A stretch of DNA of 32,000 nt from Methylophaga frappieri (GCF_000260965.1 NC_017856.1:810001-842000), one strand, 5' to 3'. Positions 3 through 21,256 are shown, counted from the first letter of the stretch. The notes: generated by a model not told the origin, from the letters alone. Numbers and translations: made by a program.

Positions 3-359
3 CAAATAGCCAGCACTGATTCGAATTTGCAACGCGTATCCAAAGCCATTCGCTGGTTAAGAACACACTTCAAAGAGCCAATGAAAGTAGATGATCTCGC
101 CAATCTCAGTAATATGAGCGTGTCCGCCTTTCATCATCATTTCAAAACCGTCACCAGTATGACACCGTTGCAGTTTCAGAAAGAGTTGCGCCTACATGAG
201 GCTAAACAAGTCATGCTCAACCGGATGATGGATGTCAGTACGGCCTGCATGCATGTAGGCTATTCCAGTGTTTCACAATTTAGCCGTGAGTACAGCAGAT
301 TGTTTGGCGTTTCGCCAAGGCAACATGCTAAGGCAAACGTGGATAGCGCCTTGATGTAA
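3..359 (+). CDS. AraC/XylS-family transcriptional regulator, C-terminal HTH domain only (5' end lies outside the window)
   Basis: The reading frame is open back to the window start. MSVSAFHHHFKTVTSMTPLQFQKELRLHEAK and VGYSSVSQFSREYSRLFGVSPRQ match the double helix-turn-helix signature of AraC-family proteins. Confidence 0.8.
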   Translation, partial: QIASTDSNLQRVSKAIRWLRTHFKEPMKVDDLANLSNMSVSAFHHHFKTVTSMTPLQFQKELRLHEAKQVMLNRMMDVSTACMHVGYSSVSQFSREYSRLFGVSPRQHAKANVDSALM

Positions 360-1464
360 TGATCGGCAATAATCTGGGTAATCCTGACCATGCAATCAAG
401 TGATGACTTATTCGGCAGCCTAGTCCACCAAGTTCATCAATCAGACGGTCCCAACAAGTTTCGACATGAAACAACGAAGGCTGAAAATTGTTGTCATCTG
501 GCTTCTTCTGAAACAGCATTTCCAATCGGCTTTCTGTGACTCTTGTTTCAGAAAAAGCATGCGTTAACTGATTTCCGACAGCATTAATCATCATGGTGCC
601 GTCACGGGTTTTCATCACCGCTTTACACCGGTCTGGTTTGGTTATATGACACCATTTCATTAACGCTAGTGAATCAAAGTACCAGTCATCGGCAAACCGC
701 CAACCAAAGCTGAACCATCCATCCAATTCCTGTGTTTCGGCTAACCACCCCTTTTCTGATATCGGTGTCTCGTTTAATTCAAATGGAGTGATTAAGGCTG
801 AGTGAGTCCATTTCGTCTGTCTGGACTTGGCTATTGGGCTCAGCCAGGCCAGTTTAATCTCACCTTGCTCACAATCGTATATTGGGAAATCCTGTAAATT
901 CATCGCTTTGAGCGTTTTGTGCATTTGGAAGAAATCAGCTGCATCGGATAAATCTGTTTTATTGACAACCAGTGCGTCAGCAATCCGCAACTGTTGTTGA
1001 AACACCGCATGCTCGATATACCGTGTATCTCTAAAATGACGTGCATCGACAAGCGTGATGGTTGCTCGAATATCCAACAGCCCTTGATAATCGGGACCAC
1101 GCAATGTCGCGATGACCTCTTTGGGATGTCCTAGTCCGCTAGGTTCAATAATCAGACGATCCCATTTTCGAATTCTTAATAATTGATTTAAGGCGACTTG
1201 CATTGGTAATACGGCAGTACAGCACATACAGCCACCCACAACCTCGCGAATTTCAATCTGACTTTTTTGATTGGCCTGGCTGGTTAGCAATTGTCGATCA
1301 ATGCCAACTTTGCCAAACTCATTGATGAGGATCGCCCAATGCTCATTATCGGGCTTTTGTTTTAACAATTGCTGAATTGCAGAGGTTTTACCTACTCCAA
1401 GAAACCCGGTAATCACGTTAGTGGCAACACCACGTTGAATGCGACCGAGTGTCAATTTCGTCAT
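328..1464 (-). CDS. COG0523-family G3E GTPase (CobW/YjiA/ZigA-like putative metallochaperone), copy 1
   Basis: Walker A GFLGVGKT, CxCC metal motif GGCMCCT, IIEPSGLG and NKTD are present. The preferred start is the ATG at 1464 (MTKLTLG...) rather than the ORF-track start at 1515. The 3' end overlaps the convergent AraC gene by 32 nt. Confidence 0.8.
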   Translation of the reverse strand: MTKLTLGRIQRGVATNVITGFLGVGKTSAIQQLLKQKPDNEHWAILINEFGKVGIDRQLLTSQANQKSQIEIREVVGGCMCCTAVLPMQVALNQLLRIRKWDRLIIEPSGLGHPKEVIATLRGPDYQGLLDIRATITLVDARHFRDTRYIEHAVFQQQLRIADALVVNKTDLSDAADFFQMHKTLKAMNLQDFPIYDCEQGEIKLAWLSPIAKSRQTKWTHSALITPFELNETPISEKGWLAETQELDGWFSFGWRFADDWYFDSLALMKWCHITKPDRCKAVMKTRDGTMMINAVGNQLTHAFSETRVTESRLEMLFQKKPDDNNFQPSLFHVETCWDRLIDELGGLGCRISHHLIAWSGLPRLLPIITSRRYPRLP

Positions 1465-1567
1465 CTTAAATTTGTATTTATTTGAATACGGTAATGGCCT
1501 GGGCAAGTCGACCAATCTCGCTGGATAGAGACTATATCGACTTAAAAAAGCTGACTCTAACTGTCAT

Positions 1568-3226
1568 TTAATGTGAGAAAGCCCCATGAACGTTATGAAG
1601 CTGCAAGCGTGCTTCAGTTGCCTCGCTTTTCGCCAAACCATAATTACTCAAGCGGAGACTATAAAAGCGATCAAAATAGTCTTGGATATGGCCTTCAATA
1701 TTTCGGTCATAGCCCACATTAAGTGCCAAGGTTTTACCTGCCGCACTCACCATTATTTCTCCATTATCCAGTACTAATTGACCATTTTTAAATACTTTCT
1801 CTGCCCGCCGAAACATGGCTGCTTTATCTGCTTGCTCACGATAAATTGCGATATCTGCTTTCGCTCCTGGTTTAAGATGCCCCCGATCTGTCTGACCTAA
1901 TAATTTCGATGGGGCAGCACGTGTCATAATCGCAATATCGTTAAGACTGTACTCGCGTTTAATTTCTTTGAGTAACGTCATTTCCGCAATATCGGGATGC
2001 AGATTGCAGAGACATTCCATTCGATAGTCATAATCCATCAGCAATCTGAGTAAATCCGGATATCTTGTGAATGGTGCACCATTAGGATGATCTGTTGTAA
2101 AAAACAAACGCCAAGGATCATCACATAATAAAAAAATTTCCAGGCCGATGGCCCACTGTAAGCCATTAATGAAACTTGCTGACTTATATTGATAAGGCAC
2201 AATCCCCCCACTGCCCTCATTTTCAGCATGCCAAATATGCCATTTTTGCGGTGAGGCATCATGTCGACGATCAAATTGCGCCATCACATCACCAGAAAGT
2301 GTGACCGTCTGGCCGAATAAAACTTGACCTACATCCATCGTGATATTGGGGTGGCGATTAAAAGCGGTCATTAATTTCGCAGCGGAAGAGGAAAAACCAT
2401 ATTTGCCCTCATCGCCATATCCGTAGAATTGTACATGCGCTAAATGCATAGGCAGACCTTGCGCTGCCTCCATGGTATCGACTATGGTCTGGATGTTGCC
2501 CGGTGTCCCCAGATTGTTGCAATGGACATGTACAGGGTGCGGTAATCCGGTCTGAACGACGGCGGTTTGTAATTTCTGTAATAAGGTACGCGATGAAATA
2601 CCATAATCAGGTACGGTGTCATCCAGACCGAATGTCTCAACACCTTTTTTGAATGCCTGCGACCCACCAGCATTAATCACTTTTAAACCTAGCGCTTTGG
2701 TGACATTCATTGTCCAACTGACATAATCGTTAATTTGATTCTGACTGGCGTCAGCCCGTAATAATCTGACCAAAAAGTCATCGCTACCCAGCACTGCCAA
2801 TGCCGCTGTATCAATGATAGGAATATCAGCCAACTCGGCATGAACTTGCGGGGCATTAATTGGCAACATCGCTGGCTCAAGAACCATGCTATAGCCCATT
2901 TCAGTGTATCGATATCCGGTTTCAAATGAAGACCATTTGGCATTGTGAAACGGCTTTAAGCGATTACGCTGCAAATGATTACGGTGTTGATCCGGCAACA
3001 TGAGTCGAGCGGTATTTACATTGCCCCCTGCAATATGACTATGAATATCTAAGGCCCCTGCCATCGTCACTGCGCCTTCGAGATCGATCACCGTGGCCTG
3101 CTGTTGAAGACTTTGGCTTGGCTCATCAATAATTCTGTCATCACCAATCCACAATGTCTTTTTCTGGCCATCAGCATGTTGCAGTGGATCATAGACACAA
3201 GCATTTTTTAAACAGACGATATTCAT
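1568..3226 (-). CDS. FwdA/FhcA-family (formylmethanofuran dehydrogenase subunit A-like, COG1229) metal-dependent amidohydrolase
   Basis: 552 aa. The N-terminus MNIVCLKNACVYDP...MAGALDIHSHIAGGNVNTARLMLP resembles FwdA/FhcA proteins as I recall them. It carries an HxH motif (HSH) and further ligand-like motifs HVHCNN, HLAHVQF and TTDHPNG. An AAGGAG RBS lies 5 nt upstream of the ATG. No fwd/fhc partner genes are nearby. Confidence 0.7.
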   Translation of the reverse strand: MNIVCLKNACVYDPLQHADGQKKTLWIGDDRIIDEPSQSLQQQATVIDLEGAVTMAGALDIHSHIAGGNVNTARLMLPDQHRNHLQRNRLKPFHNAKWSSFETGYRYTEMGYSMVLEPAMLPINAPQVHAELADIPIIDTAALAVLGSDDFLVRLLRADASQNQINDYVSWTMNVTKALGLKVINAGGSQAFKKGVETFGLDDTVPDYGISSRTLLQKLQTAVVQTGLPHPVHVHCNNLGTPGNIQTIVDTMEAAQGLPMHLAHVQFYGYGDEGKYGFSSSAAKLMTAFNRHPNITMDVGQVLFGQTVTLSGDVMAQFDRRHDASPQKWHIWHAENEGSGGIVPYQYKSASFINGLQWAIGLEIFLLCDDPWRLFFTTDHPNGAPFTRYPDLLRLLMDYDYRMECLCNLHPDIAEMTLLKEIKREYSLNDIAIMTRAAPSKLLGQTDRGHLKPGAKADIAIYREQADKAAMFRRAEKVFKNGQLVLDNGEIMVSAAGKTLALNVGYDRNIEGHIQDYFDRFYSLRLSNYGLAKSEATEARLQLHNVHGAFSH

Positions 3227-3313: not shown

Positions 3314-3330
3314 ACGATACATCGTATCAT
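3314..3330. promoter_or_regulatory. Candidate Fur-family (Zur) operator, box A: ACGATACATCGTATCAT
   Basis: 17-bp palindrome with 6 of 8 arm pairs complementary and a central T. It lies 88 nt upstream of the amidohydrolase start, just downstream of the zur stop. It shares the GATAyAT..TATCAT core with boxes B and C. Confidence 0.4.
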
Positions 3331-3343
3331 ATAAGGTCATACA

Positions 3344-3802
3344 TCATAGATCGGATACCTGGCAGTTCTCGCATAACCCGTGAAGCTCAAGCTGCGTATC
3401 AATGAGCTTAAAATTGTTATCACCGATATCCTTCAGTAATTGAGCAAACAAATCGTGGTCAATATTAATTTCATTAACCGACTGACACTTATCGCAGATT
3501 AAAAATTGTGATGTCTGGCCGAGCTGTTCATTCCCGATAGACGAACAGGCGATAAATTTGTTTGCCGAAGTTAATTTATGCGCCAAGTTATGAGAAATGA
3601 GAAATTCCAACATCCGATAAACGGACATAGCCGGGATGCTTTGGAAATATCTCTGTTGATATGAGTCAACAATATCATAGGCAGATAGCGGCCTGGACTC
3701 TGTCAGTATAATTTCCAGCACTTTTCGACGTTTAGGTGTCAATTTTGCCCCCCGCTCAAAGCAGGTTCTTTCGGCTCGATTTAAAATTTCATCCACTTCC
3801 AT
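3344..3802 (-). CDS. zur: Zinc uptake regulator, Fur family (Zur)
   Basis: By-eye alignment to E. coli Zur: AERTCFERGAKLTPKRRKVLEIIL / AEKICAQRNVRLTPQRLEVLRLM; LSAYDIVD / ISAYDLLD; SVYRMLEFL..AHKL / TVYRALDFL..VHKV; LICDKCQSV / FICDRCGAV; LHGLCENC / AHGLCAAC. The ORF-track start at 3829 is TTG, so the ATG at 3802 is preferred. Neither start has a strong RBS. Confidence 0.8.
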   Translation of the reverse strand: MEVDEILNRAERTCFERGAKLTPKRRKVLEIILTESRPLSAYDIVDSYQQRYFQSIPAMSVYRMLEFLISHNLAHKLTSANKFIACSSIGNEQLGQTSQFLICDKCQSVNEINIDHDLFAQLLKDIGDNNFKLIDTQLELHGLCENCQVSDL

Positions 3803-3883
3803 TGAAAGAATCCATTGCGCCTTACCCAAGCAAATTCACTGAAAATTACCACTAGAGTTGAATAATCTGTCAAAACATATGAT

Positions 3884-3900
3884 ATGATACATTATATCAT
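3884..3900. promoter_or_regulatory. Candidate Zur operator, box B: ATGATACATTATATCAT, in the zur / sufE-like divergent promoter region
   Basis: 17-bp palindrome with 7 of 8 arm pairs complementary and a central T. It lies 22 nt upstream of the sufE-like ATG and 82 nt upstream of the zur ATG. The 15-bp core matches my recalled E. coli Zur core TGTTATAWTATAACA at 12/15, against 10/14 for the Fur 7-1-7 core. Confidence 0.55.
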
Positions 3901-3921
3901 TAAATAGTTAATTAAGAGAAC

Positions 3922-4374
3922 ATGTCACAGTCCTCCAGTCACGAGAGCATTCAAGATGCACAAACCCAGATTATTCATAATTTTCGGGCATTCAATGATT
4001 GGGTAGACCGCTATGCCTACTTGGTTGATATGGGGAAAAAAATCATTCGTGATGGCAACCACCTAAAATCCGATCAGTACAAAATCACGGGTTGCCAATC
4101 AAATGTATGGCTTTGCACGGAGGTTACTGACAATAAATTGTACTTTTCAGGTACCAGCGACTCAACCATCGTCGCAGGGCTAATGGCATTATTATTCCGG
4201 GTCTATTCAGGCCACACCGCTGATGAGATACAACGAGCATCGCCAGACTTTATTACGCAAACGGGTCTTCTTCACAATTTGACCTCTCAGCGTTCAACCG
4301 GTCTTGCTCGCATGATTGAACAGATTTATCTCTCTGCCCATCAATCCTACCAACAGCAGGCTTTATCGAAATGA
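3922..4374 (+). CDS. SufE/CsdE-family sulfur-acceptor-like protein
   Basis: 150 aa. It aligns by eye with E. coli SufE: NFRAFNDWVDRYAYLVDMG / NFLRCANWEEKYLYIIELG; active-site region ITGCQSNVWL / IQGCQSQVWI; SDSTIVAGLMALL / SDAAIVKGLIAVV; LTSQRSTGLARMI / LTPSRSQGLEAMI. Confidence 0.8.
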   Translation: MSQSSSHESIQDAQTQIIHNFRAFNDWVDRYAYLVDMGKKIIRDGNHLKSDQYKITGCQSNVWLCTEVTDNKLYFSGTSDSTIVAGLMALLFRVYSGHTADEIQRASPDFITQTGLLHNLTSQRSTGLARMIEQIYLSAHQSYQQQALSK

Positions 4375-5495
4375 ATTCCTCCTACGATGTGATCATTGTT
4401 GGTGCAGGTGCTGCCGGTGTTGGCATGGCAACAAAACTGCAAATGATTCCGGAGTTGTCATTTGTTGTTTTAGAGGCGGGTGAGATTGGCGAATCGTTTC
4501 GACGCTGGCCAAAACAAACCCGATTCATTACGCCATCATTTCATAGCAATCCGTTTGGACTCGCTGACCTTAATGCCATCACAGAATACAGTTCACCAGC
4601 CATTTTTTGTCAATCACAACACCCGACGGGTAAACAATATGCCGATTACCTGACATTTATGGCACAGGGATTTGAGTTGCCAATTATTGAAGATTGTCAG
4701 GTAACGACCGTCAAACGGCTTAACGGACAGGGCTTTAGCTTAGAAACATCACAAGGACAAATCCAATCTCGATACCTTATCTGGGCAACCGGTGAATTTC
4801 AGTTTCCAGATGTCAATCCATTCATGGGTGCTGAATATTGTATTCACTATGCGACAGTCAGTGACTGGGCTGATTATGAGGCCGAAGAATTTATTGTGAT
4901 CGGTGGATATGAAAGCGGCGTTGATGCGAGTGTCAATTTAATCAAACAAGGACATGTTGTTCGCTTATTGGTAAAAAAAGATAGCTGGGAAGCGGAAAAT
5001 ATGTATGACCCCAGTCTATCGCTTTCCCCCCACACCCGAGATCGACTTAACGAGGCGCTCGCATCGGGGAAATTATTGTTGGAGTTTGGCGTACATGTTG
5101 ACCAAGTTCTTCAACATACAGACCAAACCTTTCATGTTCATGCTGAGGATGGCCGGTCTTGGTCAATCAATCATGCTCCGATTTTGGCAACCGGATTTTT
5201 ATCTGGTGGTGGCGCACAGCAAATCGCGTCGTTATGGGCTTGGGATAACGATGGCCATTTATTGTTAACCGAAGCAGATGAATCGACCATCACACCAGGG
5301 CTGTTTTTGATTGGGCCACAAGTTCGTCAGGAAGATCGACTCTACTGTTTTATTTATAAATTTCGCCAACGATTTACTCAAATGGCCAAACTCATCGCAC
5401 TTTGTCTAAATTATGACGATAGTCAGCTGCACAGTGAGTCTGATCCTTGGGGACCTTATGGAAATAGTGACTGCTGCGAGGGCTGCGAATGTTAA
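4371..5495 (+). CDS. FAD/NAD(P)-binding oxidoreductase (two-dinucleotide-fold flavoprotein, FMO/CzcO-like) with a C-terminal Cys-rich tail
   Basis: N-terminal DVIIVGAGAAGVG Rossmann motif, second nucleotide fold FIVIGGYESGVDAS, and an ATG motif (ILATGF). It ends in GNSDCCEGCEC. The start overlaps the sufE-like stop (ATGA, 4371-4374). Confidence 0.7.
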   Translation: MNSSYDVIIVGAGAAGVGMATKLQMIPELSFVVLEAGEIGESFRRWPKQTRFITPSFHSNPFGLADLNAITEYSSPAIFCQSQHPTGKQYADYLTFMAQGFELPIIEDCQVTTVKRLNGQGFSLETSQGQIQSRYLIWATGEFQFPDVNPFMGAEYCIHYATVSDWADYEAEEFIVIGGYESGVDASVNLIKQGHVVRLLVKKDSWEAENMYDPSLSLSPHTRDRLNEALASGKLLLEFGVHVDQVLQHTDQTFHVHAEDGRSWSINHAPILATGFLSGGGAQQIASLWAWDNDGHLLLTEADESTITPGLFLIGPQVRQEDRLYCFIYKFRQRFTQMAKLIALCLNYDDSQLHSESDPWGPYGNSDCCEGCEC

Positions 5496-6487
5496 ACCTA
5501 ATTACACCAATTTATCGAAACGGTTTGGGCCTTACCGCTCTCCTGCTTTTAACAGGCATTGTAGTTGGTTCTGTGACTGGCTATCTGGCTCCCAACATAG
5601 CCACTTATATCAGCGACTTTATGGATCCAACACTGTTTGTGTTGATTGTATTACTGTTTTTCACGATACGTTTTAACCCAATTATTACCGATAAGCGAAA
5701 GCTGAAATTTATTGCCATCGCGGTTATCGCGAATTTTGTGTTTGTGCCATTGATTGGCTTCGCCATTGCGTCGGTCTTTTTAAACCATTACCCCCTGTTT
5801 ATGTTGGGGTTAATGATTTATTTCATGTCACCTTGTACAGATTGGTTTTTAGGCTTTACCCGTCTCTGCCGAGGCGACACGATGCTCGGTGCGGCGCTAA
5901 TGCCGATCAATATGACATTACAATTATTGCTTTTCCCGCTTTTTTTATATTTATTCAGTCAAAATATTGTTGAATTAGAAACCGGCATTATCACCGATAC
6001 CTTATTGAACTGGTTTATTGAACCCGTCCTGATTGCGCTGACTGCACGATTGGCACTGAAGCTTGTGTTAAATCATGACCAAATTACACGGCTGCTGGAT
6101 AAAGTGAATCGACTTATCCCATTCATCATTGCCTTGCTGATTATGCAAATTTTTGCCGGCAATATTGATGTGTTGCTGGGCCATATTGATGTTTTCATCT
6201 GGATGTTACTGGCAGTGTTTTGCTTTTTTGTACTGACCTTTATGCTCAGTGAGTTTGTCAGTAAGCGATTTTCTCTGCCTTATTCAGAACATGTTTTACT
6301 CACCATGACCGTAGCAGCACGAAATGCGCCATTAATGTTAGCGGTCACCATGGTTGTTTTACCATCACAGCCCTTAATTTACGCAGCCATTGTTATTGGC
6401 ATGCTCCTGGAGTTTCCACACCTTACCTTGTTAAGCCATTTGCTGATGCGTTCATCACACTCAAAAACAGCAGAACGATTGGCATGA
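5489..6487 (+). CDS. Polytopic inner-membrane permease, ACR3 / bile-acid:Na+ symporter (SBF-like) superfamily
   Basis: 332 aa and almost entirely hydrophobic, with about 10 predicted helices. General resemblance to ACR3/BASS permeases, including the SPCTDW segment. The start overlaps the flavoprotein stop by 7 nt. The family call is by resemblance only. Confidence 0.6.
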   Translation: MLNLITPIYRNGLGLTALLLLTGIVVGSVTGYLAPNIATYISDFMDPTLFVLIVLLFFTIRFNPIITDKRKLKFIAIAVIANFVFVPLIGFAIASVFLNHYPLFMLGLMIYFMSPCTDWFLGFTRLCRGDTMLGAALMPINMTLQLLLFPLFLYLFSQNIVELETGIITDTLLNWFIEPVLIALTARLALKLVLNHDQITRLLDKVNRLIPFIIALLIMQIFAGNIDVLLGHIDVFIWMLLAVFCFFVLTFMLSEFVSKRFSLPYSEHVLLTMTVAARNAPLMLAVTMVVLPSQPLIYAAIVIGMLLEFPHLTLLSHLLMRSSHSKTAERLA

Positions 6488-6502: not shown

Positions 6503-6540
6503 CCCACCTGAGTGACCTATCTATTTAGGTGGGCGTTTTA
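6503..6540 (+). terminator. Possible weak intrinsic terminator after the permease gene
   Basis: CCCACCT (6503-6509) pairs with AGGTGGG (6527-6533) across a 17-nt loop, followed by CGTTTTA. The large loop and short T tract make it weak. Confidence 0.35.
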
Positions 6541-6610: not shown

Positions 6611-8626
6611 ATGTCATTATCCTCATCACACGCTAGTTCCTTGATCAAAGTTCAACTCGCATCAGGACAAGCGCACACCTTCAGTGAACCTGTACGTATC
6701 GATGAAGCACTGCAGGCCCTGATGCCGACAAAAACGCGCTTTGTCGTAGCAGCCACAGTAGATGGGCAACCCCATGATTTATCGGACGTTCTCCATAGCG
6801 ACTGTGTGGTTGAGCCGGTGTTTGCCAACACGGAGCAAGGCATCGACATCATTCGTCATTCCACAGCACATTTGTTTGGTCATGCCGTCAAACAACTGTT
6901 TCCTGACACTAAAATGGTCATAGGCCCGGTCATTGATAATGGCTTTTTTTATGACATCGACAGTGAGCACCGCTTTACGCCGGAAGACTTAGCCACCATT
7001 CAAGAGCGAATGGAAGCCCTGGCTAAGACCGCTTATACCGTTGTCAAAAAAATGACCGCCAAGGCTGAAGCCCGGGCAATATTTGAAGCCCGGGGCGAAA
7101 GCTACAAGGTGCGGCTCATTGATGATATGGCTGAGGACATCAAAGAAGTCGGCCTGTATTACCACGAAGAATACATTGATATGTGTCGTGGCCCGCATGT
7201 GCCGACTATGTCCTTCTGCAACGCCTTTCAATTAACCAAGCTGGCCGGCGCCTACTGGCGTGGCGATGCCAACAACGACATGCTGCAGCGTATTTATGGC
7301 ACTGCATGGTCGGATAAAAAAGCCCTCAAGGCCTACTTGCATCAGCTTGAAGAAGCGGAAAAACGCGACCACCGCAAGCTGGGCCGTCAACTCGATCTGT
7401 TTCATTTTCAGGAAGAGGCGCCGGGCTCGGTATTCTGGCACCCCAAGGGCTGGCAAGTCCTGCAGCAGTTAATTGCCTACCTGCGCCGTCGCCAGTCAGC
7501 CGAAGACTATGACGAAATCAATTCGCCAGATGCGATGGACAGAAGCCTCTGGGAAACCTCCGGTCACTGGGAAAACTACCGCGAGCATATGTTTACCACG
7601 GAGACCGCCGACGGTCGTGTATTGGCGATGAAGCCGATGAACTGTCCAGGCAGCGTGTTGCTCTACAAGCAGGGGGTAAAAAGCTACCGTGACCTACCGG
7701 TTCGCATGAGTGAGTTCGGTAAAGTGCACCGCTATGAGCCGTCTGGAGCCTTGCATGGTTTGTTGCGAGTCAGACACTTTACTCAGGATGACGCCCATAT
7801 CTACTGCACCCCTGCTCAAATGCAGCCGGAGTGTGTTGCTGCCATTGCCCTGTTGTTGGATATCTATAAACAGTTAGGCTTTGACGATATCCGCATCAAG
7901 CTGTCTACCCGGCCAGACAATCGCATTGGTTCGGATGAGACCTGGGATCGCCTAGAGCAGGCCCTCATTGACGCACTGGATGAGTTACAACTGCACTACC
8001 AAGTCAATGAAGGTGAAGGCGCATTTTATGGCCCCAAACTGGAATTTGTCTTACAAGACGCCATCAAACGCGACTGGCAGTGCGGCACCTTACAAGTGGA
8101 TATGAACCTGCCTGCCCGTTTTGAGCTCAGCTACATTGATGCCAGTGGCGCGCCTCAAGCACCGGTGATGCTGCATCGTGCCATTCTGGGCTCACTGGAG
8201 CGCTTTATCGGTATTCTTATCGAACAGTATGAAGGCAAGCTGCCCGTCTGGTTATCCCCTGTTCAACTGGTTATCTGCACCATACATGAAGGCCTCAGCG
8301 GTTACGCAGAGCAGGTTGCCCAGCTACTGCGTAATGCGGGATGTCGTGTCGATATCGATAGCCGTTCAGAAAAAATAGGCTACAAAATTCGTCAGCACAC
8401 CTTGCAGCGTATCCCCTACATTGCCGTTATCGGTGATAAAGAAAAAGAGAATCAGACACTCTCACTTCGCCAGTTGAACGGTGACAACCTGGGAACGCTT
8501 CAACTGAATGAGGTTGTCGCGATGATGAGCGAAGCGATTCAACCACCCGACCAGAAAGCGCAGGCTCAGCAACTTCAGGCTGTGCTGGAAGCATTGCAAC
8601 CCAAACAGGCTGACACCCATGAATGA
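6611..8626 (+). CDS. thrS: Threonyl-tRNA synthetase (full length: TGS, editing, catalytic and anticodon-binding domains)
   Basis: Editing-domain motifs [10 protein letters not shown] and DMCRGPH. Catalytic-site Zn ligand contexts [14 protein letters not shown] and MLHRAILGS are all retained. It is not followed by infC-rpmI-rplT. It has a Gln/Ala-rich C-terminal tail. Confidence 0.95.
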
Positions 8627-9971
8627 TACGCAAGCAGTATCCCGTCACGCTGACTTACTGATCACTGACGGCACCGTCATCACCCCATCCGGTGAACGGC
8701 ACATTGATATCGCCTGCCGACATGGACGTGTTGTGGCATTAGGTGATTTGCAGTCTCAGTGGTCAGCAGACACCACCTTATCCGTGAAGGGCCTGCATAT
8801 GATGCCCGGTGTGATGGACACACAGGTGCACTTCCGTGAACCGGGTTTAACCCACAAAGAGACGATTGAAGCGGGTACCCGAGGTGCCGTGCTTGGCGGG
8901 ATCACCGGCATCTTCGAGATGCCCAACACCAACCCGTTGACGATGCATAAAGCCGATCTTGATGCCAAGCTGGATATCGCTAAACGCTCCGCCTGGTGTG
9001 ACTATGCCTTCTATCTCGGTGGCTCTGCCGTGAATGCTGAGCAATTGGCCGAATTGGAATTGCTCCCCGGTTGCTCCGGCGTAAAAGTGTTTATGGGTAG
9101 CTCCTTTGGTGATTTGTTAACCGATGATCAAACCATACTTGAGCGTATTTTGATGTCGGGCCAGCGTCGTGTGGCAATTCATGCTGAGGATGAACAACGT
9201 CTGCGTGAGCGTCGTCAGCTTGTTGAAGCCGATCAAGACGTTCGTCAGCACCCTTTTTGGCGCGATGTCGACAGTGCCTTATTTGCGACCAAACGCATCG
9301 TCGCTTTGTCTGAAAAGACCTGTCGTCGCTTGCATGTGCTTCATATCAGTACTGAAGAAGAGATCACTTTCCTGGCAGAACATAAGCACCATGTCAGCGT
9401 TGAAGTCACGCCTCACCATCTGACCATGAGTGCGCCAGCGTGCTATGAACGCTTGGGTAGTCTCGCTCAAATGAACCCACCGGTCAGGGAAAAACGCCAT
9501 CAGGACGCCTTATGGCGTGCCATCAACAATGGCATTGTTGATGTGATTGGCAGTGACCACGCCCCGCACACTCTGGAAGAAAAAGCCAAGCCTTATCCAA
9601 ACTCACCCAGCGGTATGACTGGAGTGCAAACCCTGCTGCCGGTGATGCTCGATCATGTCCACCATGGTCGACTGACCCTGCAGCGTTTGGCCGATTTAAC
9701 CAGTGCAGGTCCTGCGCGTTTATTCAATATTCAGGGCAAAGGACGTATTGCCGTGGGCTACGACGCCGACTTTTCTATTGTTGATCTCTCAGCCAGGCGC
9801 ACCATTGAAAACAGCTGGATTGCCAGCCAGTCAGGCTGGTCACCTTACGATGGCAAAGCCATCACCGGTTGGCCGATTCATACCATCGTACGCGGCAATA
9901 TCGTTGTTCGGGACGAGGCATTGTCGACCCGGCCGGACGCTCAGCCTATCCAGTTTGATTATCACCAGTAA
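8619..9971 (+). CDS. pyrC: Dihydroorotase-like amidohydrolase (long, class I type)
   Basis: [60 protein letters not shown] and GSDHAPH. The start overlaps the thrS stop by 8 nt (ATGAATGA). Confidence 0.85.
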
Positions 9972-9989: not shown

Positions 9990-10478
9990 ATGACCGAAAC
10001 ATCACCGTCCCTGTTTCACGACAGGAAAACCATCGAGCAGGTCGAGGAAGGCAACGAACTCGCGCCAAAATTTGATGAGCAGGGCTTGATTAGCTGTATT
10101 ACCACCGACCATGCCTCAGGCGAGGTATTGATGCTGGGCTATATGAACCAGGAAGCGCTCAGCAAAACCATTGAAACCGGCGAGGCACATTATTGGAGTC
10201 GTTCACGGAAAACCTTGTGGCACAAAGGTAAGACCAGTGGCCTTGTCCAGCAGGTCATCGAAATGCGTATTGATGACGATCAGGATGCGATCTGGCTGGC
10301 AGTGAAGGTACTGGGCTCAGGCGCAAGCTGCCATGTTGGCTATCGCTCCTGCTTTTATCGTCGTGTCCCGGTCGGACAAGACCGTGAGCAACAAGCAGAT
10401 CTGGTCTTCACCGAACAGACAAAAGTGTTTGAGCCGGAAGACGTCTACGGCGATGCGCCCAACCCAACCATACTCTAA
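9990..10478 (+). CDS. hisI: Phosphoribosyl-AMP cyclohydrolase (monofunctional HisI)
   Basis: [32 protein letters not shown] and [11 protein letters not shown] match the HisI domain of E. coli HisIE. An AGGA RBS precedes the start. There is no HisE fusion and no neighbouring his genes. Confidence 0.9.
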
Positions 10479-13714: not shown

Positions 13715-14926
13715 CTAAGCAGGTTGCCATTGAGGAAATGGATCCGTCATGGTTTCCCACAATGATTTACCTGCGAGTAACTCTTCATCGCTGATAAGGC
13801 ACTCATCCAGCATGTTTCTGACCTGACCTTCATCCATATTCTGGCCAATAAATACCAGTTCCTGACGCATATCGCCGAACGGTTCCACCCAGTGCTCTTT
13901 GATGATTTTCAGTGACTCTTCATCCTGTGGCCAGCGACTTTCCGGTACCGCACGCCAGAACATGCCCGCAAAGCCATGCCGCGCAATACCGCCCGCCTGA
14001 CTCCACTGACCTGCAAATTGCGGTCGGCTGGCCAGCCAGAAATACCCCTTGGAACGAATCAGTTTTCCACACGGCCACTCTTGGTGCAGAAAGTCATAAA
14101 ACTTCTGTGGGTTGAACGGTTTACGCGCCGTATAAGTAAAGCTGCTTATGCCATACTCTTCCGTCTCCGGTTTGTGTTCACCGCGTCCTTCCTGCAACCA
14201 ACCTGCTGATTGTTCTGCTTTTTCAAAATCGAACTTGCCGGTTGCCAGCACTTTATCGAGGGCGACCTGTCCTTGCTCGATGGGAACAATCTCGGCGACG
14301 GGATTTAAGCCTTTGATAACACCGATGACAGCATTGAGTTGTTCTGGGCTACAGAGGTCGGTTTTGCTAATCAAAATCACATCACAGAATTCAATCTGAT
14401 CCACCAGCAGATCAGCGACACTTCGCTCATCGTCTTCGCCCAGTGATTCACCGGCATCCTGTAGCATGTCTGCCTGCTGGAAATCATTCAGAAAGTTGGC
14501 GGCATCCACCACCGTGACCATCGTATCCAGACGCGCCACTTCTGACAGGCTCTGTCCATCCTCATCAGCGAAGGTAAAGGTTTCGGCTACCGGTAACGGC
14601 TCAGAAATACCGGTAGATTCAATCACCAGATAATCAAAGCGGCCTTCATCAGCCAGACGACGAACCTCTAGCAATAAGTCCTCACGCAAGGTGCAGCAAA
14701 TGCAGCCATTGCTCATTTCTACCAACTTTTCTTCAGACCGGTTGAAATCAACCTCGTTATTGACTTGCTGAGCATCAATGTTGATTTCGCTCATATCATT
14801 AACAATGACGGCTACCTTTCGGCCCTCACGGTTGTTGAGAATATGATTCAGAACGGTGGTTTTGCCAGCCCCAAGGAAACCTGACAAAACGGTAACCGGC
14901 AGGCGTTTGTCCTGTTCAATGGTCAT
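13715..14926 (-). CDS. COG0523-family G3E GTPase (YeiR/ZigA-like zinc metallochaperone candidate), copy 2
   Basis: Walker A GFLGAGKT, CxCC motif [16 protein letters not shown] and SKTD, plus a CobW C-terminal-like domain. The preferred start is the ATG at 14926 (MTIEQ...), with an AAGGAA RBS about 6 nt upstream. This start overlaps the dksA-like stop by 11 nt. Confidence 0.85.
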
Positions 14927-15314
14927 AGTGGCTTTCCTTTTTTTCATTTATCGTTTTTGCATCAGTCGAAAACTCGGCCGTTGGTCGAAGCAATAGACGT
15001 TGAATGCCTATTGGCTCTCCAGTCTGCGTGCAATACCCATAATCACCCATACGAATTCGGTGACGTGCAGCATCAATTTTAGGAATAAGCTGGCGTTTTC
15101 TGTCTGCGATTCGAATGGCAATAATTGCTTCTTCCTCTAATGTCGCCCGATCACTAACATCACTCACCCTGGCTTGTGAAATTTCAGCGCGAAGTGCTTC
15201 TATTTCCTGTAGCGTTTCCTGCCGAAGCTGTTGCAAGCGAAGATCAAAAAATGCCAGTTGTTCTGCATTCATGTACTCATCGTCTGATGCATTTAATAAG
15301 GTTTTTTCATCCAT
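14916..15314 (-). CDS. dksA2: DksA-family RNA-polymerase-binding protein lacking the Cys4 zinc finger (DksA2-type)
   Basis: Coiled-coil tip DVSDRA (DxxDxA) is present. The C-terminal region [31 protein letters not shown] aligns with E. coli [31 protein letters not shown], but only the first of the four Cys is kept. The preferred start is the ATG at 15314 (MDEKTLL...). Confidence 0.8.
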
Positions 15315-15443
15315 CTTTCTGATCCAACATTCGTTTGGCCACTGAGAACACATCTTGATTTTTATTTACAAATTGATTTCTGGTTCTCAGTTCAGCGCTC
15401 GATTTGATATTGAGAATCCAACTAAGGAAAGTCACTTGTATTT

Positions 15444-15464
15444 ATGATATATCATATCATTATA
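15444..15464 (-). promoter_or_regulatory. Candidate Zur operator, box C (ATGATATATCATATCAT, 15444-15460), abutting a perfect -10 hexamer for the dksA2-COG0523 operon
   Basis: 17-bp palindrome with 7 of 8 arm pairs complementary and a central T. On the minus strand, TATAAT (15459-15464) overlaps the operator edge by 2 nt, so the likely transcription start falls inside the box. The core matches the recalled Zur core at 12/15. Confidence 0.55.
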
Positions 15465-15872: not shown

Positions 15873-18011
15873 TTAAAATTCCGTTTCAAAAGTCAGGGTG
15901 ACTTTCAGTGGATCACCGAAATAACTTTGCTGGGGAGGACCGGAAACCCGGCTGTAATAGCGTTTATCGGTCAGGTTGGTGCCATTCAGAATAAAACGGC
16001 TGTCAGGACTTATCTGATAAGCCACCATGGCAGACAAGGTGGTGTAACCGCCCTGCTCCCATTTCACATTGCCTGATTCATAGAAGGTGCCACTGTTGTA
16101 CTCGACGCCCAGCCCGGCAGCCCACTGCTGGTTAAAGTTATATTTACCCCACAGTTTCAGGCTGTGCTCCGGTGCGTCGGGATTAAAAACGTTGCCTTCC
16201 GCATCAGGATCAGCCGCTTTGAGTTGCTCGGTATCGATGTAGGCATAGCCAGCCAATACATCCAGCTTGTCAAACAGGGTACCGGAAATCTCGGTTTCAA
16301 AACCCCGGGCGCGAACCTTGCCACCGGCAATTGAGAAAAGAGGATTGTTGGGATCACTGATGGCACGGTTCTCATCCGTCAGTTGGAATACCGCCAACTG
16401 GTAATTGGCTGCGCCGTTATTGAGCACTCCTTTCATCCCCACTTCATACTGGGTGCCGGTTCTAGGGTCGAGTAGTTTTTCGTTGGCATCCAGATTGGTT
16501 TGCGGCACAAATGACTCGGCCGCACTGACATAGACTGTGGTGGTGTCATTCAGATCATAAACCAGCCCGCCATATGGAGTGAACTCGTTATCAAACTCGG
16601 AAACAGAGCCCATGGCATCGGTTTTCCAGTCGGTAAAGCGGCCGCCCAGGATCAGTTTGGTCGCCTCTGTGAGGTTGGATGTGGTTTTGAAATACAGGCC
16701 GCGTTCACGGGTATCAGTTTTGCCAAATGAAAAGGCAGGAACCAGATTCGGTCTGGGATTGCTGGCAGAGTCCGGATCAAACACATTAATAGAGGGATAG
16801 GCAGTGTCGACCATGTAGCCTTTATTGTTATTTTCGGAATGGCTGCCATTGGCGCCCAGCAGAACCTTATGCTCCATTCCCAGAAAGGTCACTGGCAGGT
16901 TGATATGCGCATCAAAGCTGCTTTCCTCAAGTTCCTGATCCGCCGACAGCGACCAACGATCAACATCACCAGTCACCGGATCAATTGGCGAAGTAGTGTA
17001 GTTGAGCAGGTATCTCATATCACGGTCGCTGTGATTCAGGGTTACGACCGCTTCGGCACCGGAGTCAAAGTGATGTTCAAGCTCGACAAATTGACGACGC
17101 AAGCGACTTTCTTTGTAGTTGAAACCCGTACCGGTATATAAATCACGAGAAATTGGCGCAAACGAGCCATCAGCATAAAGCGGTACACCGACATACGGCG
17201 TGTCATCAGTGTCTTCCAGGCTGGCACCGACGGAAACCGTAGTGTCACTGCTCAGATCCAGTTCCAGCGTGCCGTAGAATACTTTCTTCTCCATATCCAC
17301 ATCATCGATATGCGAATCGCTATCTTCATAGGCGGCAACGGCACGACCACGTAATGTACCGGCATCATTCAAAGCGCCGGTCACGTCCAGATTCGTGCGG
17401 TAACCGGGCCAAGAGTTGGCAGATCCACGAAATGCAACTCTGTTCTCAGCCAGCGCCCGCTTACGAACCAGGTTGATAAAGCCACCCGGTTCACCGGAAC
17501 CTTGTAGCAAACCAGCCGGACCACGTAAAACTTCAACACGTTCATAAGCTGCCAAATCAGGCGCACCGTGTCCGTGTGTGCCGGAACCACTGGCTGAAGT
17601 TTCGATCCCGTCAATGTTGATCGTGTTGAGTTCAAAACCACGCATGATGTAGTTAGCGGTGCCAGTGCCAAATGTCTTGACGGTGACACCGGTGGTGTTC
17701 TGTAACGCATCGTTCAGGGTTAACAGGTTTTTGTCCTTGATTAACTGGCTGGTGATAACACTGACCGATTGCGGGATTGCACGTAAATTCTCTGCGCCTT
17801 TACCCAAGGTGACTGCACCGGTCGCATAAGAATTCGTTCCCTCAGTATTCAATGCCATATGCTCGGCTTGAACTTGAATCGCGGGCAGATCGTAGTTTTC
17901 TTTTTCTTCCGTGTCAGCAGCTGAAACGGCTACTGGCATAAGAGCAGAAGCAATTGTGGCAGAGAGAATGTGAGGTTTGTAATGTGTTAAAAATCGCTTT
18001 TGATTGGCCAT
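15873..18011 (-). CDS. TonB-dependent outer-membrane receptor (siderophore/metallophore-receptor type)
   Basis: 712 aa. It has a signal peptide (...ALMPVAVSAADT), plug-domain motifs (ERVEVLRGPAGLLQGSGEPGGFINLVRKR), a long beta-barrel region and a C-terminal aromatic residue (...TFETEF). Confidence 0.9.
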   Translation of the reverse strand: MANQKRFLTHYKPHILSATIASALMPVAVSAADTEEKENYDLPAIQVQAEHMALNTEGTNSYATGAVTLGKGAENLRAIPQSVSVITSQLIKDKNLLTLNDALQNTTGVTVKTFGTGTANYIMRGFELNTINIDGIETSASGSGTHGHGAPDLAAYERVEVLRGPAGLLQGSGEPGGFINLVRKRALAENRVAFRGSANSWPGYRTNLDVTGALNDAGTLRGRAVAAYEDSDSHIDDVDMEKKVFYGTLELDLSSDTTVSVGASLEDTDDTPYVGVPLYADGSFAPISRDLYTGTGFNYKESRLRRQFVELEHHFDSGAEAVVTLNHSDRDMRYLLNYTTSPIDPVTGDVDRWSLSADQELEESSFDAHINLPVTFLGMEHKVLLGANGSHSENNNKGYMVDTAYPSINVFDPDSASNPRPNLVPAFSFGKTDTRERGLYFKTTSNLTEATKLILGGRFTDWKTDAMGSVSEFDNEFTPYGGLVYDLNDTTTVYVSAAESFVPQTNLDANEKLLDPRTGTQYEVGMKGVLNNGAANYQLAVFQLTDENRAISDPNNPLFSIAGGKVRARGFETEISGTLFDKLDVLAGYAYIDTEQLKAADPDAEGNVFNPDAPEHSLKLWGKYNFNQQWAAGLGVEYNSGTFYESGNVKWEQGGYTTLSAMVAYQISPDSRFILNGTNLTDKRYYSRVSGPPQQSYFGDPLKVTLTFETEF

Positions 18012-18143
18012 TAGGAAAATGTCTCGTTATTTGTAGTTGTGTTGTCGACATATCGATCTATCAATCTGGCAGACAGAGACATCGATTTGAACCGTTTTCA
18101 ATAGGAAATTTACAGAAATCTTACGAAGTGTAAATATTTGTAA

Positions 18144-18160
18144 ATGATAATTGTTATCAT
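18144..18160. promoter_or_regulatory. Fur-box-like palindrome, box D: ATGATAATTGTTATCAT, in a divergent promoter region
   Basis: 7 of 8 arm pairs are complementary. The core TGATAATTGTTATCA matches the Fur 7-1-7 consensus TGATAATnATTATCA at 13 of 14 defined positions, but the recalled Zur core at only 9/15. It lies 133 nt upstream of the TBDR start and 104 nt upstream of the oxidoreductase ATG. Confidence 0.55.
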
Positions 18161-18263
18161 AAACAATTGCAATGCGAATTGTAAAAAAACTGAAAATTTG
18201 TCGTCACTTTGCGGAAACCAATCGATATTGAGTCTGTCCCAAGGCCAACATCGGGATAAAAAC

Positions 18264-19250
18264 ATGTCTGAATCGTTAGCCATCATTGGCGCCGGGTTAA
18301 GTGGTTTAACCGTGGCCAGAGCATTAGATAACCGGTTTAATATCAAGATATTTGAAAAATCAACCAAACCGGGCGGCCGGATAGCAAGTCGGGCTGTTTC
18401 AGGGACTACTTTCGATCATGGTGCCCAGTTTTTCACCGCCAAATCAGCGTCTTTCCAGCAATTTATTACACCGTTGCTTAGAGCAGGTCTGATTGCGGAT
18501 TGGCAGGCACGTTTTGCAGAGTTTGATGCAGGGAAAATGGTAAATGCACGCAAATGGGACGCTGCGTTTCCACATTACGTTGGCGTTCCCGCAATGGCTG
18601 CCATTGGTGAAGCGTTGGCGACAGATTTACCGATAGAATACAACTGTCAAATAGTGAGCGTGTTTCAAGACGATCAGAAATGGTACTTAGTCGATAAGAC
18701 CGGCAAGATATCCCCCCCTTTTGATTGGTTAATTATCGCTTTGCCTGCTGAGCAGACACGCGAGCTCATTCCAACTGAGGTCAGTTTTTATCAAGACATG
18801 TTACAAATTAACATGTTGCCTTGTTATGCTCTGATGGTTTCGCTGACTCAGGATCCTGAGTTTGAGTGTGATGCCGCATTGGTCAAAAATAGAAAACTAA
18901 GTTGGATTTCGGTTAATCACACCAAGCCCGGCAGACAGGGGTTTGGCATCGTCGCGCATGCCGCCAATCATTGGGCCCTGGAAAACCTCACCAAACCGCT
19001 ACCAGAGGTGAAAGCATCTCTGCTTAGAACGCTCATAGAGATAACCAATCTCAGTTCATCAATCATTCAGGAAACAGATGTTAAACGCTGGGTTTATGCT
19101 AATAGCCCACGGCAGGATGGCTCTGCTTATTTTATTGATGATAAAAAGCATATTGCCGCATGTGGCGACTGGTGTCTTATCGGTCGAATTGAGGCCGCTT
19201 ATACCAGTGCTTCTCTGTTAGCAGAGCGTCTTTTTGTAGTCATGCACTAA
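18264..19250 (+). CDS. NAD(P)/FAD-dependent oxidoreductase (renalase-like, COG3380-type)
   Basis: N-terminal LAIIGAGLSGLTVA dinucleotide fold, EKSTKPGGRIASR and FDHGAQFFTA. The preferred start is the ATG at 18264 (MSESLAIIG...). The 40-codon extension back to 18144 runs across the palindromic operator. Confidence 0.6.
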   Translation: MSESLAIIGAGLSGLTVARALDNRFNIKIFEKSTKPGGRIASRAVSGTTFDHGAQFFTAKSASFQQFITPLLRAGLIADWQARFAEFDAGKMVNARKWDAAFPHYVGVPAMAAIGEALATDLPIEYNCQIVSVFQDDQKWYLVDKTGKISPPFDWLIIALPAEQTRELIPTEVSFYQDMLQINMLPCYALMVSLTQDPEFECDAALVKNRKLSWISVNHTKPGRQGFGIVAHAANHWALENLTKPLPEVKASLLRTLIEITNLSSSIIQETDVKRWVYANSPRQDGSAYFIDDKKHIAACGDWCLIGRIEAAYTSASLLAERLFVVMH

Positions 19251-20863: not shown

Positions 20864-20924
20864 AGTTAATGCTCTCACCAGCAGATATGGCGAAAGGAGT
20901 TTTTGACTGTAAAGCCAGTAAAAA

Positions 20925-21001
20925 TGGCACGCCCGGCAGGACTCGAACCTGCTACCCTCGGCTTAGAAGGCCGATGCTCTATCCGGATGAGCTACGGGCG
21001 C
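20925..21001 (-). tRNA. tRNA-Arg (anticodon UCU)
   Basis: The reverse complement, GCGCCCGTAGCTCATCCGGATAGAGCATCGGCCTTCTAAGCCGAGGGTAGCAGGTTCGAGTCCTGCCGGGCGTGCCA, folds as a cloverleaf. The anticodon loop is CTTCTAA, the T-loop is GGTTCGAGTCC, and CCA is encoded. Confidence 0.9.
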
Positions 21002-21040
21002 ATCGTGTTGGCAAAGCGTTATGGTAACGTATTCAGGAAG

Positions 21041-21117
<77 letters not shown>

Positions 21118-21152
21118 ACATTTCAAGGACAGACATCCCCGAAGAAGGCGAA

Positions 21153-21181
21153 ATAATACGCTGACCCTGTTCTTGAGTCAA
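21153..21181 (-). promoter_or_regulatory. Sigma70-type promoter for the tRNA-Pro / tRNA-Arg transcription unit
   Basis: On the minus strand: TTGACT (21176-21181), a 17-nt spacer, TATTAT (21153-21158), then a GC-rich discriminator-like stretch about 30 nt upstream of the mature tRNA-Pro 5' end. Confidence 0.5.
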
Positions 21182-21256
21182 CAGGATGCCGATATTTTTT
21201 GCCGTGATTTTCGTAACGTGCGATCATGGGCGCTTTTTCTTCGCCGGAATTGATTG

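Follow-up and report, generated by a model that had tools for sequence, protein, structure and literature searches.

Few metal regulons have been studied as thoroughly as the Zur regulons, yet the flavoprotein family described here is missing from the classic comparative surveys. One of the closest described systems is an operon of Staphylococcus aureus, in which calprotectin induced the genes NWMN_2483, NWMN_2482, and NWMN_2481 by 152-, 83-, and 43-fold, respectively (Peng et al., 2017; PMC5480029). A Zur box was reported upstream of HG001_02621-02624, which was described as a new Zur target (PMC13586535). The flavoprotein of this operon is represented by the PDB entry 3D1C, a structural-genomics entry from S. 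aureus Mu50 that carries the label “flavin-containing putative monooxygenase.” In the gene context of 3D1C, the flavoprotein gene is followed, with a 7-nucleotide (nt) overlap, by the gene of a Gate-domain membrane protein and then by a COG0523 gene, and an alpha/beta hydrolase and an amidohydrolase are encoded on the opposite strand. This context matches NWMN_2483-2479; the operon is also found as SA2370-2368 and lies within HG001_02621-02624. Our literature searches found no functional study of the flavoprotein family, and the two S. aureus papers just cited were the only ones in which its genes were listed. The COG0523 neighbourhood survey mentions neither the flavoprotein nor its FeoB-like partner nor SufE (Haas et al., 2009; PMC2770081); the genes are unmentioned in a survey of marine cyanobacteria and in papers on zinc starvation in B. 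cenocepacia and on ZepA of Anabaena, and undiscussed in the ZigA paper. The Zur-repressed “oxidoreductase” cg0795 of C. glutamicum, divergent from a COG0523 gene, could belong to the same family, the paper being without domain information. In the present study, a member of this family was examined in a window of 32,000 nt from Methylophaga frappieri (NC_017856.1:810001-842000), where its gene is enclosed by the genes of a SufE-like protein and a permease, divergent from a zur-like gene. All coordinates are window positions.

In our study, we found that the flavoprotein and a membrane transporter, which may be of either of two unrelated folds, form a conserved core module, and that the SufE-like protein is a separable passenger. 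The three genes very probably belong to a Zur-type zinc-starvation operon, as indicated by the operator, the gene context, footprinting across phyla, and the published induction of the S. aureus ortholog. The SufE-like and flavoprotein genes overlap by 4 nt (ATGA at 4371–4374), and the flavoprotein and permease genes overlap by 7 nt (5489–5495). A preliminary description of this DNA had given both overlaps and had placed the start of the trio 22 nt downstream of a palindrome shared with zur, and these coordinates agreed with the open reading frame (ORF) list and the sequence. Its gene identities were recovered by Pfam as SufE, Pyr_redox_3, SBF, and FUR; the cysteine that it had placed in a GCQS motif is Cys58, and about ten hydrophobic segments were found in the permease that it had called a ten-helix protein. 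The link to Zur that it had drawn was likewise borne out by the shared palindrome, the divergent zur-like gene, and the zinc-starvation island around them. The continuation of the operon, the Cys tail of the flavoprotein, and the known Zur regulation of the family in S. aureus had been omitted from it.

The flavoprotein family is of moderate size and broad phylogenetic spread, with 306 clusters at 50% identity (E ≤ 1e-30), and both dinucleotide motifs, for flavin adenine dinucleotide (FAD) and for reduced nicotinamide adenine dinucleotide (phosphate) (NAD(P)H), were kept across the family. Among 73 aligned sequences, Cys326 in the motif C-F-I-Y-K-F-R (C[FY]IYKFR) was conserved in 100%, and the four terminal cysteines were conserved in 93–99%, with the consensus CC-x2-3-C-x-C-COOH and a Cys as the final residue. 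The C-terminus of the window flavoprotein is CCEGCEC, and its sequence was 100% identical to that of a Methylophaga frappieri protein, which identifies this species as the source of the window. The Cys109 residue was conserved in 27% of the same sequences. The AlphaFold (AF2) model of the flavoprotein had a predicted local distance difference test (pLDDT) score of 89 in its confident core, with a score below 50 in the tail (residues 361–374), and the C-terminal Cys tail is accordingly predicted to be flexible and disordered. The profile match to 3D1C extended over residues 1–373 (E = 7.2e-86), and 3D1C was also the top Foldseek match, with a template-modelling (TM) score of 0.86–0.90 (E = 1e-36; 358 of 369 residues modelled in 3D1C). 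The next Foldseek matches were Bdr/YpdA (TM 0.72–0.85, about 20% identity), followed by type II flavin monooxygenases and TrxR-like FNRs. The window flavoprotein has the full-length similarity, the Cys tail, and the Cys326 of the 3D1C-type family and is a member of it.

The flavoprotein did not qualify as a member of Bdr/YpdA (TIGR04018, 75.9 bits against a cutoff of 339.9), and its host is a proteobacterium. The ArsO flavin monooxygenase was also rejected (NF040505, 55.5 bits against 425), as the match covered the N-terminal half only. The preliminary description had not recognised the gene combination, and we found no characterised pathway that claims the genes; the NCBIfam scores were far below every equivalog cutoff. 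A few homologs that look eukaryotic (P0290, P0293, P0302, and P0313) were 540–660 amino acids (aa) long and contained Cys-rich C-termini (...CEACC, ...EEGCC). Their N-terminal extensions were mostly without a Pfam domain; in one of them, a signal peptide-like start was followed by an N-terminal thioredoxin domain with CGHC. Since the thioredoxin fusion occurs in just one homolog, it is weak Rosetta-stone evidence.

The conservation of the gene order was examined in two surveys. In the genome survey, one genome per species was scanned with the flavoprotein alignment; at least 548 hits were confirmed among the 600 pattern matches listed, 80 loci were kept, and the window proteins were located in them by tblastn. 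The permease survey covered 65 metagenomic loci with enough upstream sequence. The flavoprotein gene was present immediately upstream of the permease gene, on the same strand, in 50 of the 65 permease loci, and nearby in three more. Among the 80 genome loci, the permease gene was found directly 3′ of the flavoprotein gene in 19, all proteobacterial, and in 37 others this place was taken by a FeoB-like protein of about 550 aa with FeoB_N and Gate domains. The latter loci were from cyanobacteria, Chloroflexi, Bacillota, Planctomycetes, Verrucomicrobia including Akkermansia, enterobacteria, and one Stutzerimonas. The swap between these non-orthologous partners was observed even within Proteobacteria (loci L018, L023, L026, and L027), and the 7-nt overlap between the flavoprotein and transporter genes recurred with both the SBF-type and the FeoB-like partner. 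In Enterococcus faecalis (L089, 4399–7137), the genes directly upstream of the flavoprotein encode a membrane protein of the Amt family and a DCD-like protein; the former may represent a third type of membrane partner. The island of this species also contained AdcA, two COG0523 proteins, and ZnuCBA.

At least one zinc-type neighbour was present within 4 kb in 48 of the 80 flavoprotein loci. COG0523 was found in 27 of them, Zur in 15, a cysteinyl-tRNA synthetase (CysRS) paralog in 10 (usually directly upstream), a gamma-carbonic anhydrase (gamma-CA)-like protein in nine, and a threonyl-tRNA synthetase (ThrRS) paralog in eight; ZnuA/B/C, DksA, HisI, and FolE2 were further neighbours. The carriers of the family included S. 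aureus, E. faecalis, Burkholderia pseudomallei and B. multivorans, Achromobacter, and Akkermansia. In loci of Chloroflexi and Planctomycetes (L030, L031, L038, L042, L048, L067, L069, and L074), a family of about 200 aa without a Pfam match (u214) recurred next to the flavoprotein and COG0523 genes, and is another uncharacterised zinc-island gene.

The SufE-like gene showed a different distribution. It was present in one of the 80 genome loci, that of Methylophaga muralis (L001), and absent from the other 79, and it accompanied the flavoprotein-permease pair only in Methylophaga-type contigs (L001, L083–L085, L090, and L091). Its close relatives, with 66–74% identity, were also from Methylophaga-like contigs, of which L083–L085 repeat the trio. 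In L081, the zur gene and the divergent SufE-like gene were followed by genes for gamma-CA, ThrRS, amidohydrolase, and HisI, with neither flavoprotein nor permease. In L109, a SufE-like gene of 43% identity was flanked on both sides by COG0523 genes, at a distance of about 1.7 kb from the pair. The preliminary description had treated the trio as one functional unit and had proposed its synteny across genomes as a check; the synteny proved to be largely absent outside Methylophaga-type contigs, and the unity of the trio was not supported, the SufE-like gene being lineage-limited and separable from the pair (L081, L109). From its distribution, the SufE-like protein is a separable, lineage-restricted passenger of the same zinc islands. 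The homolog sample for this protein consisted of nine proteins from a word-indexed search, and its wider distribution is therefore under-sampled.

The palindrome ATGATA-N5-TATCAT, with at most one mismatch, was found at four sites in the window against 0.09 expected, and all four sites (Table 1) are intergenic and beside promoters of zinc-starvation-type genes. The exact palindrome B ends 21 nt upstream of the SufE-like ATG and overlaps the −10-like hexamer of a promoter-like site on the minus strand. It was kept 24–25 nt before the SufE-like start in seven contigs (L081–L086 and L091), and an equivalent of palindrome A was kept in L081–L083 and L085. The preliminary description had named such a box between the zur and SufE-like genes; the box is present as an exact match, exceeds the chance expectation, and is conserved in the relatives. 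From its sequence and its place in the promoter region, the palindrome at 3884–3900 is a putative Zur operator. Across the flavoprotein loci, Zur-box-like sites were found between −400 and 0 of the flavoprotein start in 23 of 75 loci, between 0 and +400 in none of 80, and at 0–1 per bin further downstream. The box was TGTTATGTTATAACA in enterics and pseudomonads, at about −35 to −300 from the flavoprotein start, and GTGATAATGATTATCAT in cyanobacteria, at −62 to −151. In S. aureus, a perfect box, AATCGTAATTATTACGATT, was present 50 nt before the flavoprotein ATG, and in Methylophaga the box with the consensus given above lies upstream of the SufE-like gene.

The permease passed the broader Pfam SBF threshold (58 against 24.3) and matched ASBT/NTCP-type proteins of the PDB with E-values of 1e-6 to 1e-4. 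It contained an invariant Cys116, within the motif YFMSPCTDWF, and the invariant motif AARNAPLML. By alignment to ASBT and knowledge of the fold, we infer that both motifs lie in the two discontinuous crossover helices. An identity as ACR3 arsenite efflux carrier was rejected (TIGR00832, 58.3 bits against 282.8); there was no ars context, and no ars genes (arsR, arsC) were found in the window or in the related loci. The bile acid:sodium symporter (BASS) identity was rejected as well (TIGR00841, 41 bits against 326.3), and the gene context did not fit it either.

The SufE-like protein belongs to the SufE-fold superfamily (PF02657, 131.9 bits against 27) and is about equally far from the SufE and CsdE proteins of the PDB (E of about 1e-18). 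Its Cys58 aligned with the region of the active-site Cys of CsdE and was invariant in 11 relatives, and the other SufE motifs were kept in all the relatives; the Escherichia coli SufE row of the motif alignment is illustrative only. The identity as SufE was rejected (NF006792, 90.4 against 160), with no suf genes in the window, and so was that as CsdE (TIGR03391, 79.2 against 136.4; NF011594, 68.4 against 252), with no csdA in the window. Neither a cysteine desulfurase nor an Fe-S scaffold gene was found in any part of the 32-kb window, which extends the earlier statement that none is adjacent. A canonical Suf/Csd role, already called unlikely in the preliminary description, is unlikely on both counts, as the scores are below the cutoffs and no desulfurase is nearby.

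We tentatively favour a reading, quite possible if short of probable, in which the flavoprotein and the transporter form a thiol-based module for the uptake and hand-off of metal, namely zinc, which is switched on by zinc starvation. The transporter, with a conserved Cys in its presumed path, would bring Zn(II), or another thiophilic cation in its stead, to the cytoplasmic side of the membrane. In the permease, the candidate path cysteine is Cys116; in the FeoB-like partner of L059, taken as a representative, it lies in the gate motif GCNVPA. The Cys4 tail of the flavoprotein would then take the metal. The analogy is with MerT and MerA, in which Hg(II), a thiophilic metal, passes from a Cys-bearing transporter to two cysteines at the flexible C-terminus of an NADPH flavoprotein. 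Through direct transfer from flavin to disulfide, NAD(P)H and FAD would hold the tail, and perhaps also the cysteine of the transporter, in the reduced state. Such a transfer was proposed for Bdr, in which bacillithiol disulfide would be reduced with no redox cysteine at the flavin; to our knowledge, bacillithiol is not expected in a proteobacterial host. The metal would pass onward to COG0523 chaperones, which contain a CxCC metal site, or to apo-enzymes. The SufE-like protein would be an extra Cys carrier that feeds or uses the relay, or merely another starvation-induced paralog in the operon. The thiol relay is favoured because both transporter types carry a path Cys, the flavoprotein has a flexible Cys4 arm on a disulfide-reductase-type scaffold, and COG0523 is the commonest neighbour. 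The broader form, a so far unrecognised system of zinc acquisition and hand-off that would depend on thiol redox and span the phyla, in which the Cys4 arm would pull Zn(II) off the transporter toward COG0523 and a SufE fold would have been recruited in Methylophaga as an extra Cys carrier, is doubtful.

Several points weigh against the zinc hand-off. We infer which species is transported and in which direction, and likewise that the flavoprotein is redox-active and that its tail binds metal. The reading explains the need for a flavin no more than indirectly, since Zn(II) has no redox activity of its own. The regulator is probably Zur, judging from its context and from its top NCBIfam match, Zur PRK11639, which at 96.3 bits was below the cutoff of 167. 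The partners are not always together: 12 of the 65 permease loci were without the flavoprotein, and about one-third of the flavoprotein loci were without a transporter within 4 kb (some contigs were short), and therefore the coupling is strong but not obligate. In S. aureus, the FeoB-like partner was called a “putative iron transporter” (PMC13586535). This name fits an alternative in which the pair would import Fe(II), or Co or Mn, to load those paralogs that need no zinc or are cambialistic and that are induced along with the pair through Zur (FolE2, gamma-CA, PyrC-like, and HisI), the flavoprotein acting as a reductase or chaperone that keeps the iron as Fe(II). The alternative partner, with its FeoB_N and Gate domains, is indeed FeoB-like, and the neighbours are exactly those paralogs, but there was neither a Fur-type context nor an iron gene in these loci, Zur boxes were found across phyla, the zinc-subfamily COG0523 was the commonest neighbour, and an SBF/ACR3-fold carrier is without precedent for Fe(II). 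We regard this supply of a substitute metal as quite improbable. The absence of any functional coupling, with three independent zinc-starvation genes that share an operon and overlaps that reflect compaction only, is an unlikely explanation in general. It holds for the SufE-like gene with respect to the pair; overlaps are common between unrelated island paralogs, such as FolE2, COG0523, and CysRS in L010, and the permease, where it lacks the flavoprotein, often adjoins COG0523 or ThrRS. For the flavoprotein-transporter pair itself it is also unlikely, since the adjacency is too consistent, with the same order and two transporter folds directly downstream.

The flavoprotein could instead be a gating or regulatory subunit, which tunes the transporter by NAD(P)H or redox state, or by cytosolic zinc sensed through the Cys tail, as in KefF/KefC and CzcO/CzcD. 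KefF and CzcO are precedents for ancillary transporter flavoproteins, the flavoprotein shows translational coupling to transporters of two unrelated folds, and its flexible Cys tail could serve as a zinc switch. The family member P0023 was named “CzcD-associated flavoprotein CzcO” by its JGI source, but this label is a COG-level annotation and not a shown functional homology. The FAD and NAD(P)H motifs are fully conserved, which together with the Bdr-like active-site architecture argues for turnover over sensing, and the frequent COG0523 neighbours fit a hand-off better; gating is improbable. The preliminary description had proposed that a thiophilic species may be handled or that zinc may be mobilised from sulfur ligands. 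This idea leads to a sulfur chemistry in which a persulfide on the SufE-like protein would be passed to the flavoprotein as a persulfide/polysulfide or low-molecular-weight disulfide reductase, and the permease would move sulfur or thiol species, which would free zinc or remove sulfide. This agrees with the persulfide-acceptor Cys and the SufE motifs of the SufE-like protein, with the nearest characterised relative of the flavoprotein, which is a low-molecular-weight disulfide reductase, and with the thiophilic metalloids handled by ACR3-type carriers. In S. aureus, exogenous sulfide induced the zinc-limitation regulon including the flavoprotein ortholog (5.5-fold), but the authors attributed the induction to zinc limitation (PMC5480029). 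The SufE-like protein is absent from nearly all the pair loci and persists without the pair in L081; therefore it is not an obligate substrate carrier. With no cysteine desulfurase nearby either, we consider the sulfur reading quite improbable.

The trio is the promoter-proximal part of a six-gene operon, in which the SufE-like, flavoprotein, and permease genes are followed by thrS, amidohydrolase, and hisI paralogs (Table 1). The 123-nt spacer after the permease contained a terminator-like hairpin, the fold of which was not significant (z = −1.9). A gamma-CA-like gene takes up this spacer in the relative L083, where all seven operon genes abut or overlap; the hairpin may be a deletion remnant, a partial terminator, or a processing site. 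The ThrRS cluster was present in eight flavoprotein loci. The window ThrRS retained the MNCPG, DDAHIY, and MLHRA stretches, which we take to be the probable zinc-site residues, and it therefore seems to resemble a second zinc-binding ThrRS and not a zinc-free one. The amidohydrolase paralog, with a weak dihydroorotase match, was also found after ThrRS in L081, L083, and L085, and HisI was recurrent in the flavoprotein loci.

Table 1. Features of the zinc-starvation region of Methylophaga frappieri in window positions.
Feature	Position	Strand	Evidence or remark
FmdA-like amidohydrolase gene (1568–3226) and CobW-type GTPase gene (328–1515)	328–3226	−	Downstream of palindrome A
Palindrome A, ACGATACATCGTATCAT	3314–3330		One mismatch; between zur 3′ end and start of FmdA-like/CobW operon
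zur-like gene, Fur-family repressor with two CxxC motifs	3344–3829	−	PF01475, E = 2.6e-11
Palindrome B, ATGATACATTATATCAT	3884–3900		Exact match; common to divergent zur and SufE-like promoters
SufE/CsdE-fold protein, 150 aa, Cys58 in GCQS	3922–4374	+	PF02657, E = 1.3e-38
Flavoprotein, two-Rossmann NAD(P)H/FAD, 374 aa	4371–5495	+	Pyr_redox_3, E = 2.6e-99, full model length
Inner-membrane permease, BASS/ACR3 (SBF) fold, 332 aa	5489–6487	+	PF01758 SBF, E = 1.4e-15
Hairpin, 12 bp, with weak T-run	6503–6533	+	Terminator-like scan
ThrRS paralog, zinc-island type	6611–8626	+	60% identical to the ThrRS after the flavoprotein pair in L005
Amidohydrolase (dihydroorotase-like) paralog	8619–9971	+	PF01979, E = 1.7e-22; 8-nt overlap with thrS
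HisI (phosphoribosyl-AMP cyclohydrolase) paralog	9990–10478	+	PF01502, E = 8e-32; final operon gene
dksA2-type gene (14916–15353), then COG0523 GTPase gene (13715–14947)	13715–15353	−	Pfam, translation
Palindrome, ATGATATATCATATCAT	15444–15460		Exact match; upstream of dksA2/COG0523 unit
TonB-dependent receptor gene	15873–18011	−	Pfam; palindrome 18144–18160 in upstream region
Palindrome, ATGATAATTGTTATCAT	18144–18160		Exact match; between TonB-dependent receptor gene and divergent amine-oxidase-like flavoprotein gene

The region of about 18 kb is a zinc-starvation island with a common operator. Its zinc-hallmark genes are zur, two COG0523-type genes, the DksA2-type gene, the TonB-dependent receptor gene, and the ThrRS, HisI, and amidohydrolase paralogs. 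The dksA2-type gene overlaps the COG0523 gene and forms with it a second unit of the island; its protein contained one Cys in place of the C4 finger of DksA (CxxT...S..A). The FmdA-like protein, of 552 aa, matched TIGR03121, “formylmethanofuran dehydrogenase subunit A,” with 648.8 bits against a cutoff of 392.75, and the CobW-type gene had a cobW Pfam match. In L083, the same FmdA-like amidohydrolase gene was followed by MerC, ZrgA, and CobW genes. Instead of an enzyme of C1 metabolism, the FmdA-like protein may represent a paralog of the zinc-starvation type or a client of COG0523.

The mechanical call of the zur-like gene begins at a TTG; the true start may be an ATG that lies about 27 nt further inside. 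The start of the amine-oxidase-like ORF (region 15873–19250) is probably further downstream than called, because the palindrome at 18144–18160 overlaps the mechanically called ATG on the plus strand. The Rfam scan of the window gave two tRNAs only, and therefore no riboswitch. The two tRNA genes are on the minus strand at 20928–21117 and overlap the mechanically listed ORF 20903–21253 (+), which is probably not a gene.

The flavoprotein is among the most strongly calprotectin-induced genes of S. aureus, and its family is found in both pathogens and commensals. The transporter pairing, the Cys4 tail, and the disulfide-reductase fold lead to testable hypotheses on how zinc moves between the membrane and COG0523 chaperones, which is an open question of metallostasis. 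If the relay with recruitment of the SufE fold is true, it would give SufE a role outside Fe-S assembly. Zur-regulated zinc-starvation operons were already known, as was the flavoprotein as an uncharacterised Zur target in one species. The breadth of the flavoprotein family and its invariant Cys4 tail are new, and so is its strong pairing with transporters of two alternative folds, one of them an SBF/ACR3-type carrier without an earlier link to zinc. The putatively Zur-controlled SufE-fold gene in Methylophaga is also new. The locus is not a strange new system; it marks a gap in zinc biology that is well defined and widely distributed.

Compared with the known systems, the locus resembles each of them in part. 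Bdr/YpdA (PDB 7A7B, 7A76) has the closest characterised fold, a two-Rossmann NADPH/FAD fold with no CxxC or CxxxxC beside the flavin, but Bdr is without the C-terminal Cys tail, the transporter partner, and the Zur context, and its likeness to the window protein is one of fold alone. MerA/MerT is used as a working analogy only; MerA belongs to another class of flavoproteins, with a CxxxxC redox pair, and reduces Hg(II), whereas Zn(II) cannot be reduced. No mer genes were found here, and no sequence relationship to MerA or MerT was shown. The window permease shares the ten-helix fold family with ACR3 and BASS/ASBT (SBF, PF01758), and presumably also a conserved Cys in the crossover region of transmembrane helix 4, as in ACR3, but it has its own invariant motifs, PCTDWF and AARNAPLML, and a zinc-starvation context instead of ars. 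The SufE-like protein has the fold of SufE/CsdE and retains the motif of the persulfide-acceptor Cys as well as the remaining SufE motifs, but it is below the cutoffs, SufS, CsdA, and SufBCD are not nearby, and a placement divergent from zur is undescribed for SufE. The S. aureus operon NWMN_2483-2482-2481 has the same flavoprotein family, with a CC-x3-C-x-C end, a transporter overlapped by 7 nt, a Zur box upstream, and strong induction under zinc limitation, and it is functionally uncharacterised as well. It differs in its Gate-domain (FeoB-like) partner and the COG0523 gene in the operon; its flavoprotein has about 34% identity to that of the window, and it is without the SufE-like, tRNA-synthetase, and HisI paralogs. 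With the zinc-sparing paralog islands described earlier (PMC2770081), this locus and its relatives share COG0523, DksA2, FolE2, HisI, CysRS/ThrRS, gamma-CA, PyrC-like proteins, and Zur boxes.

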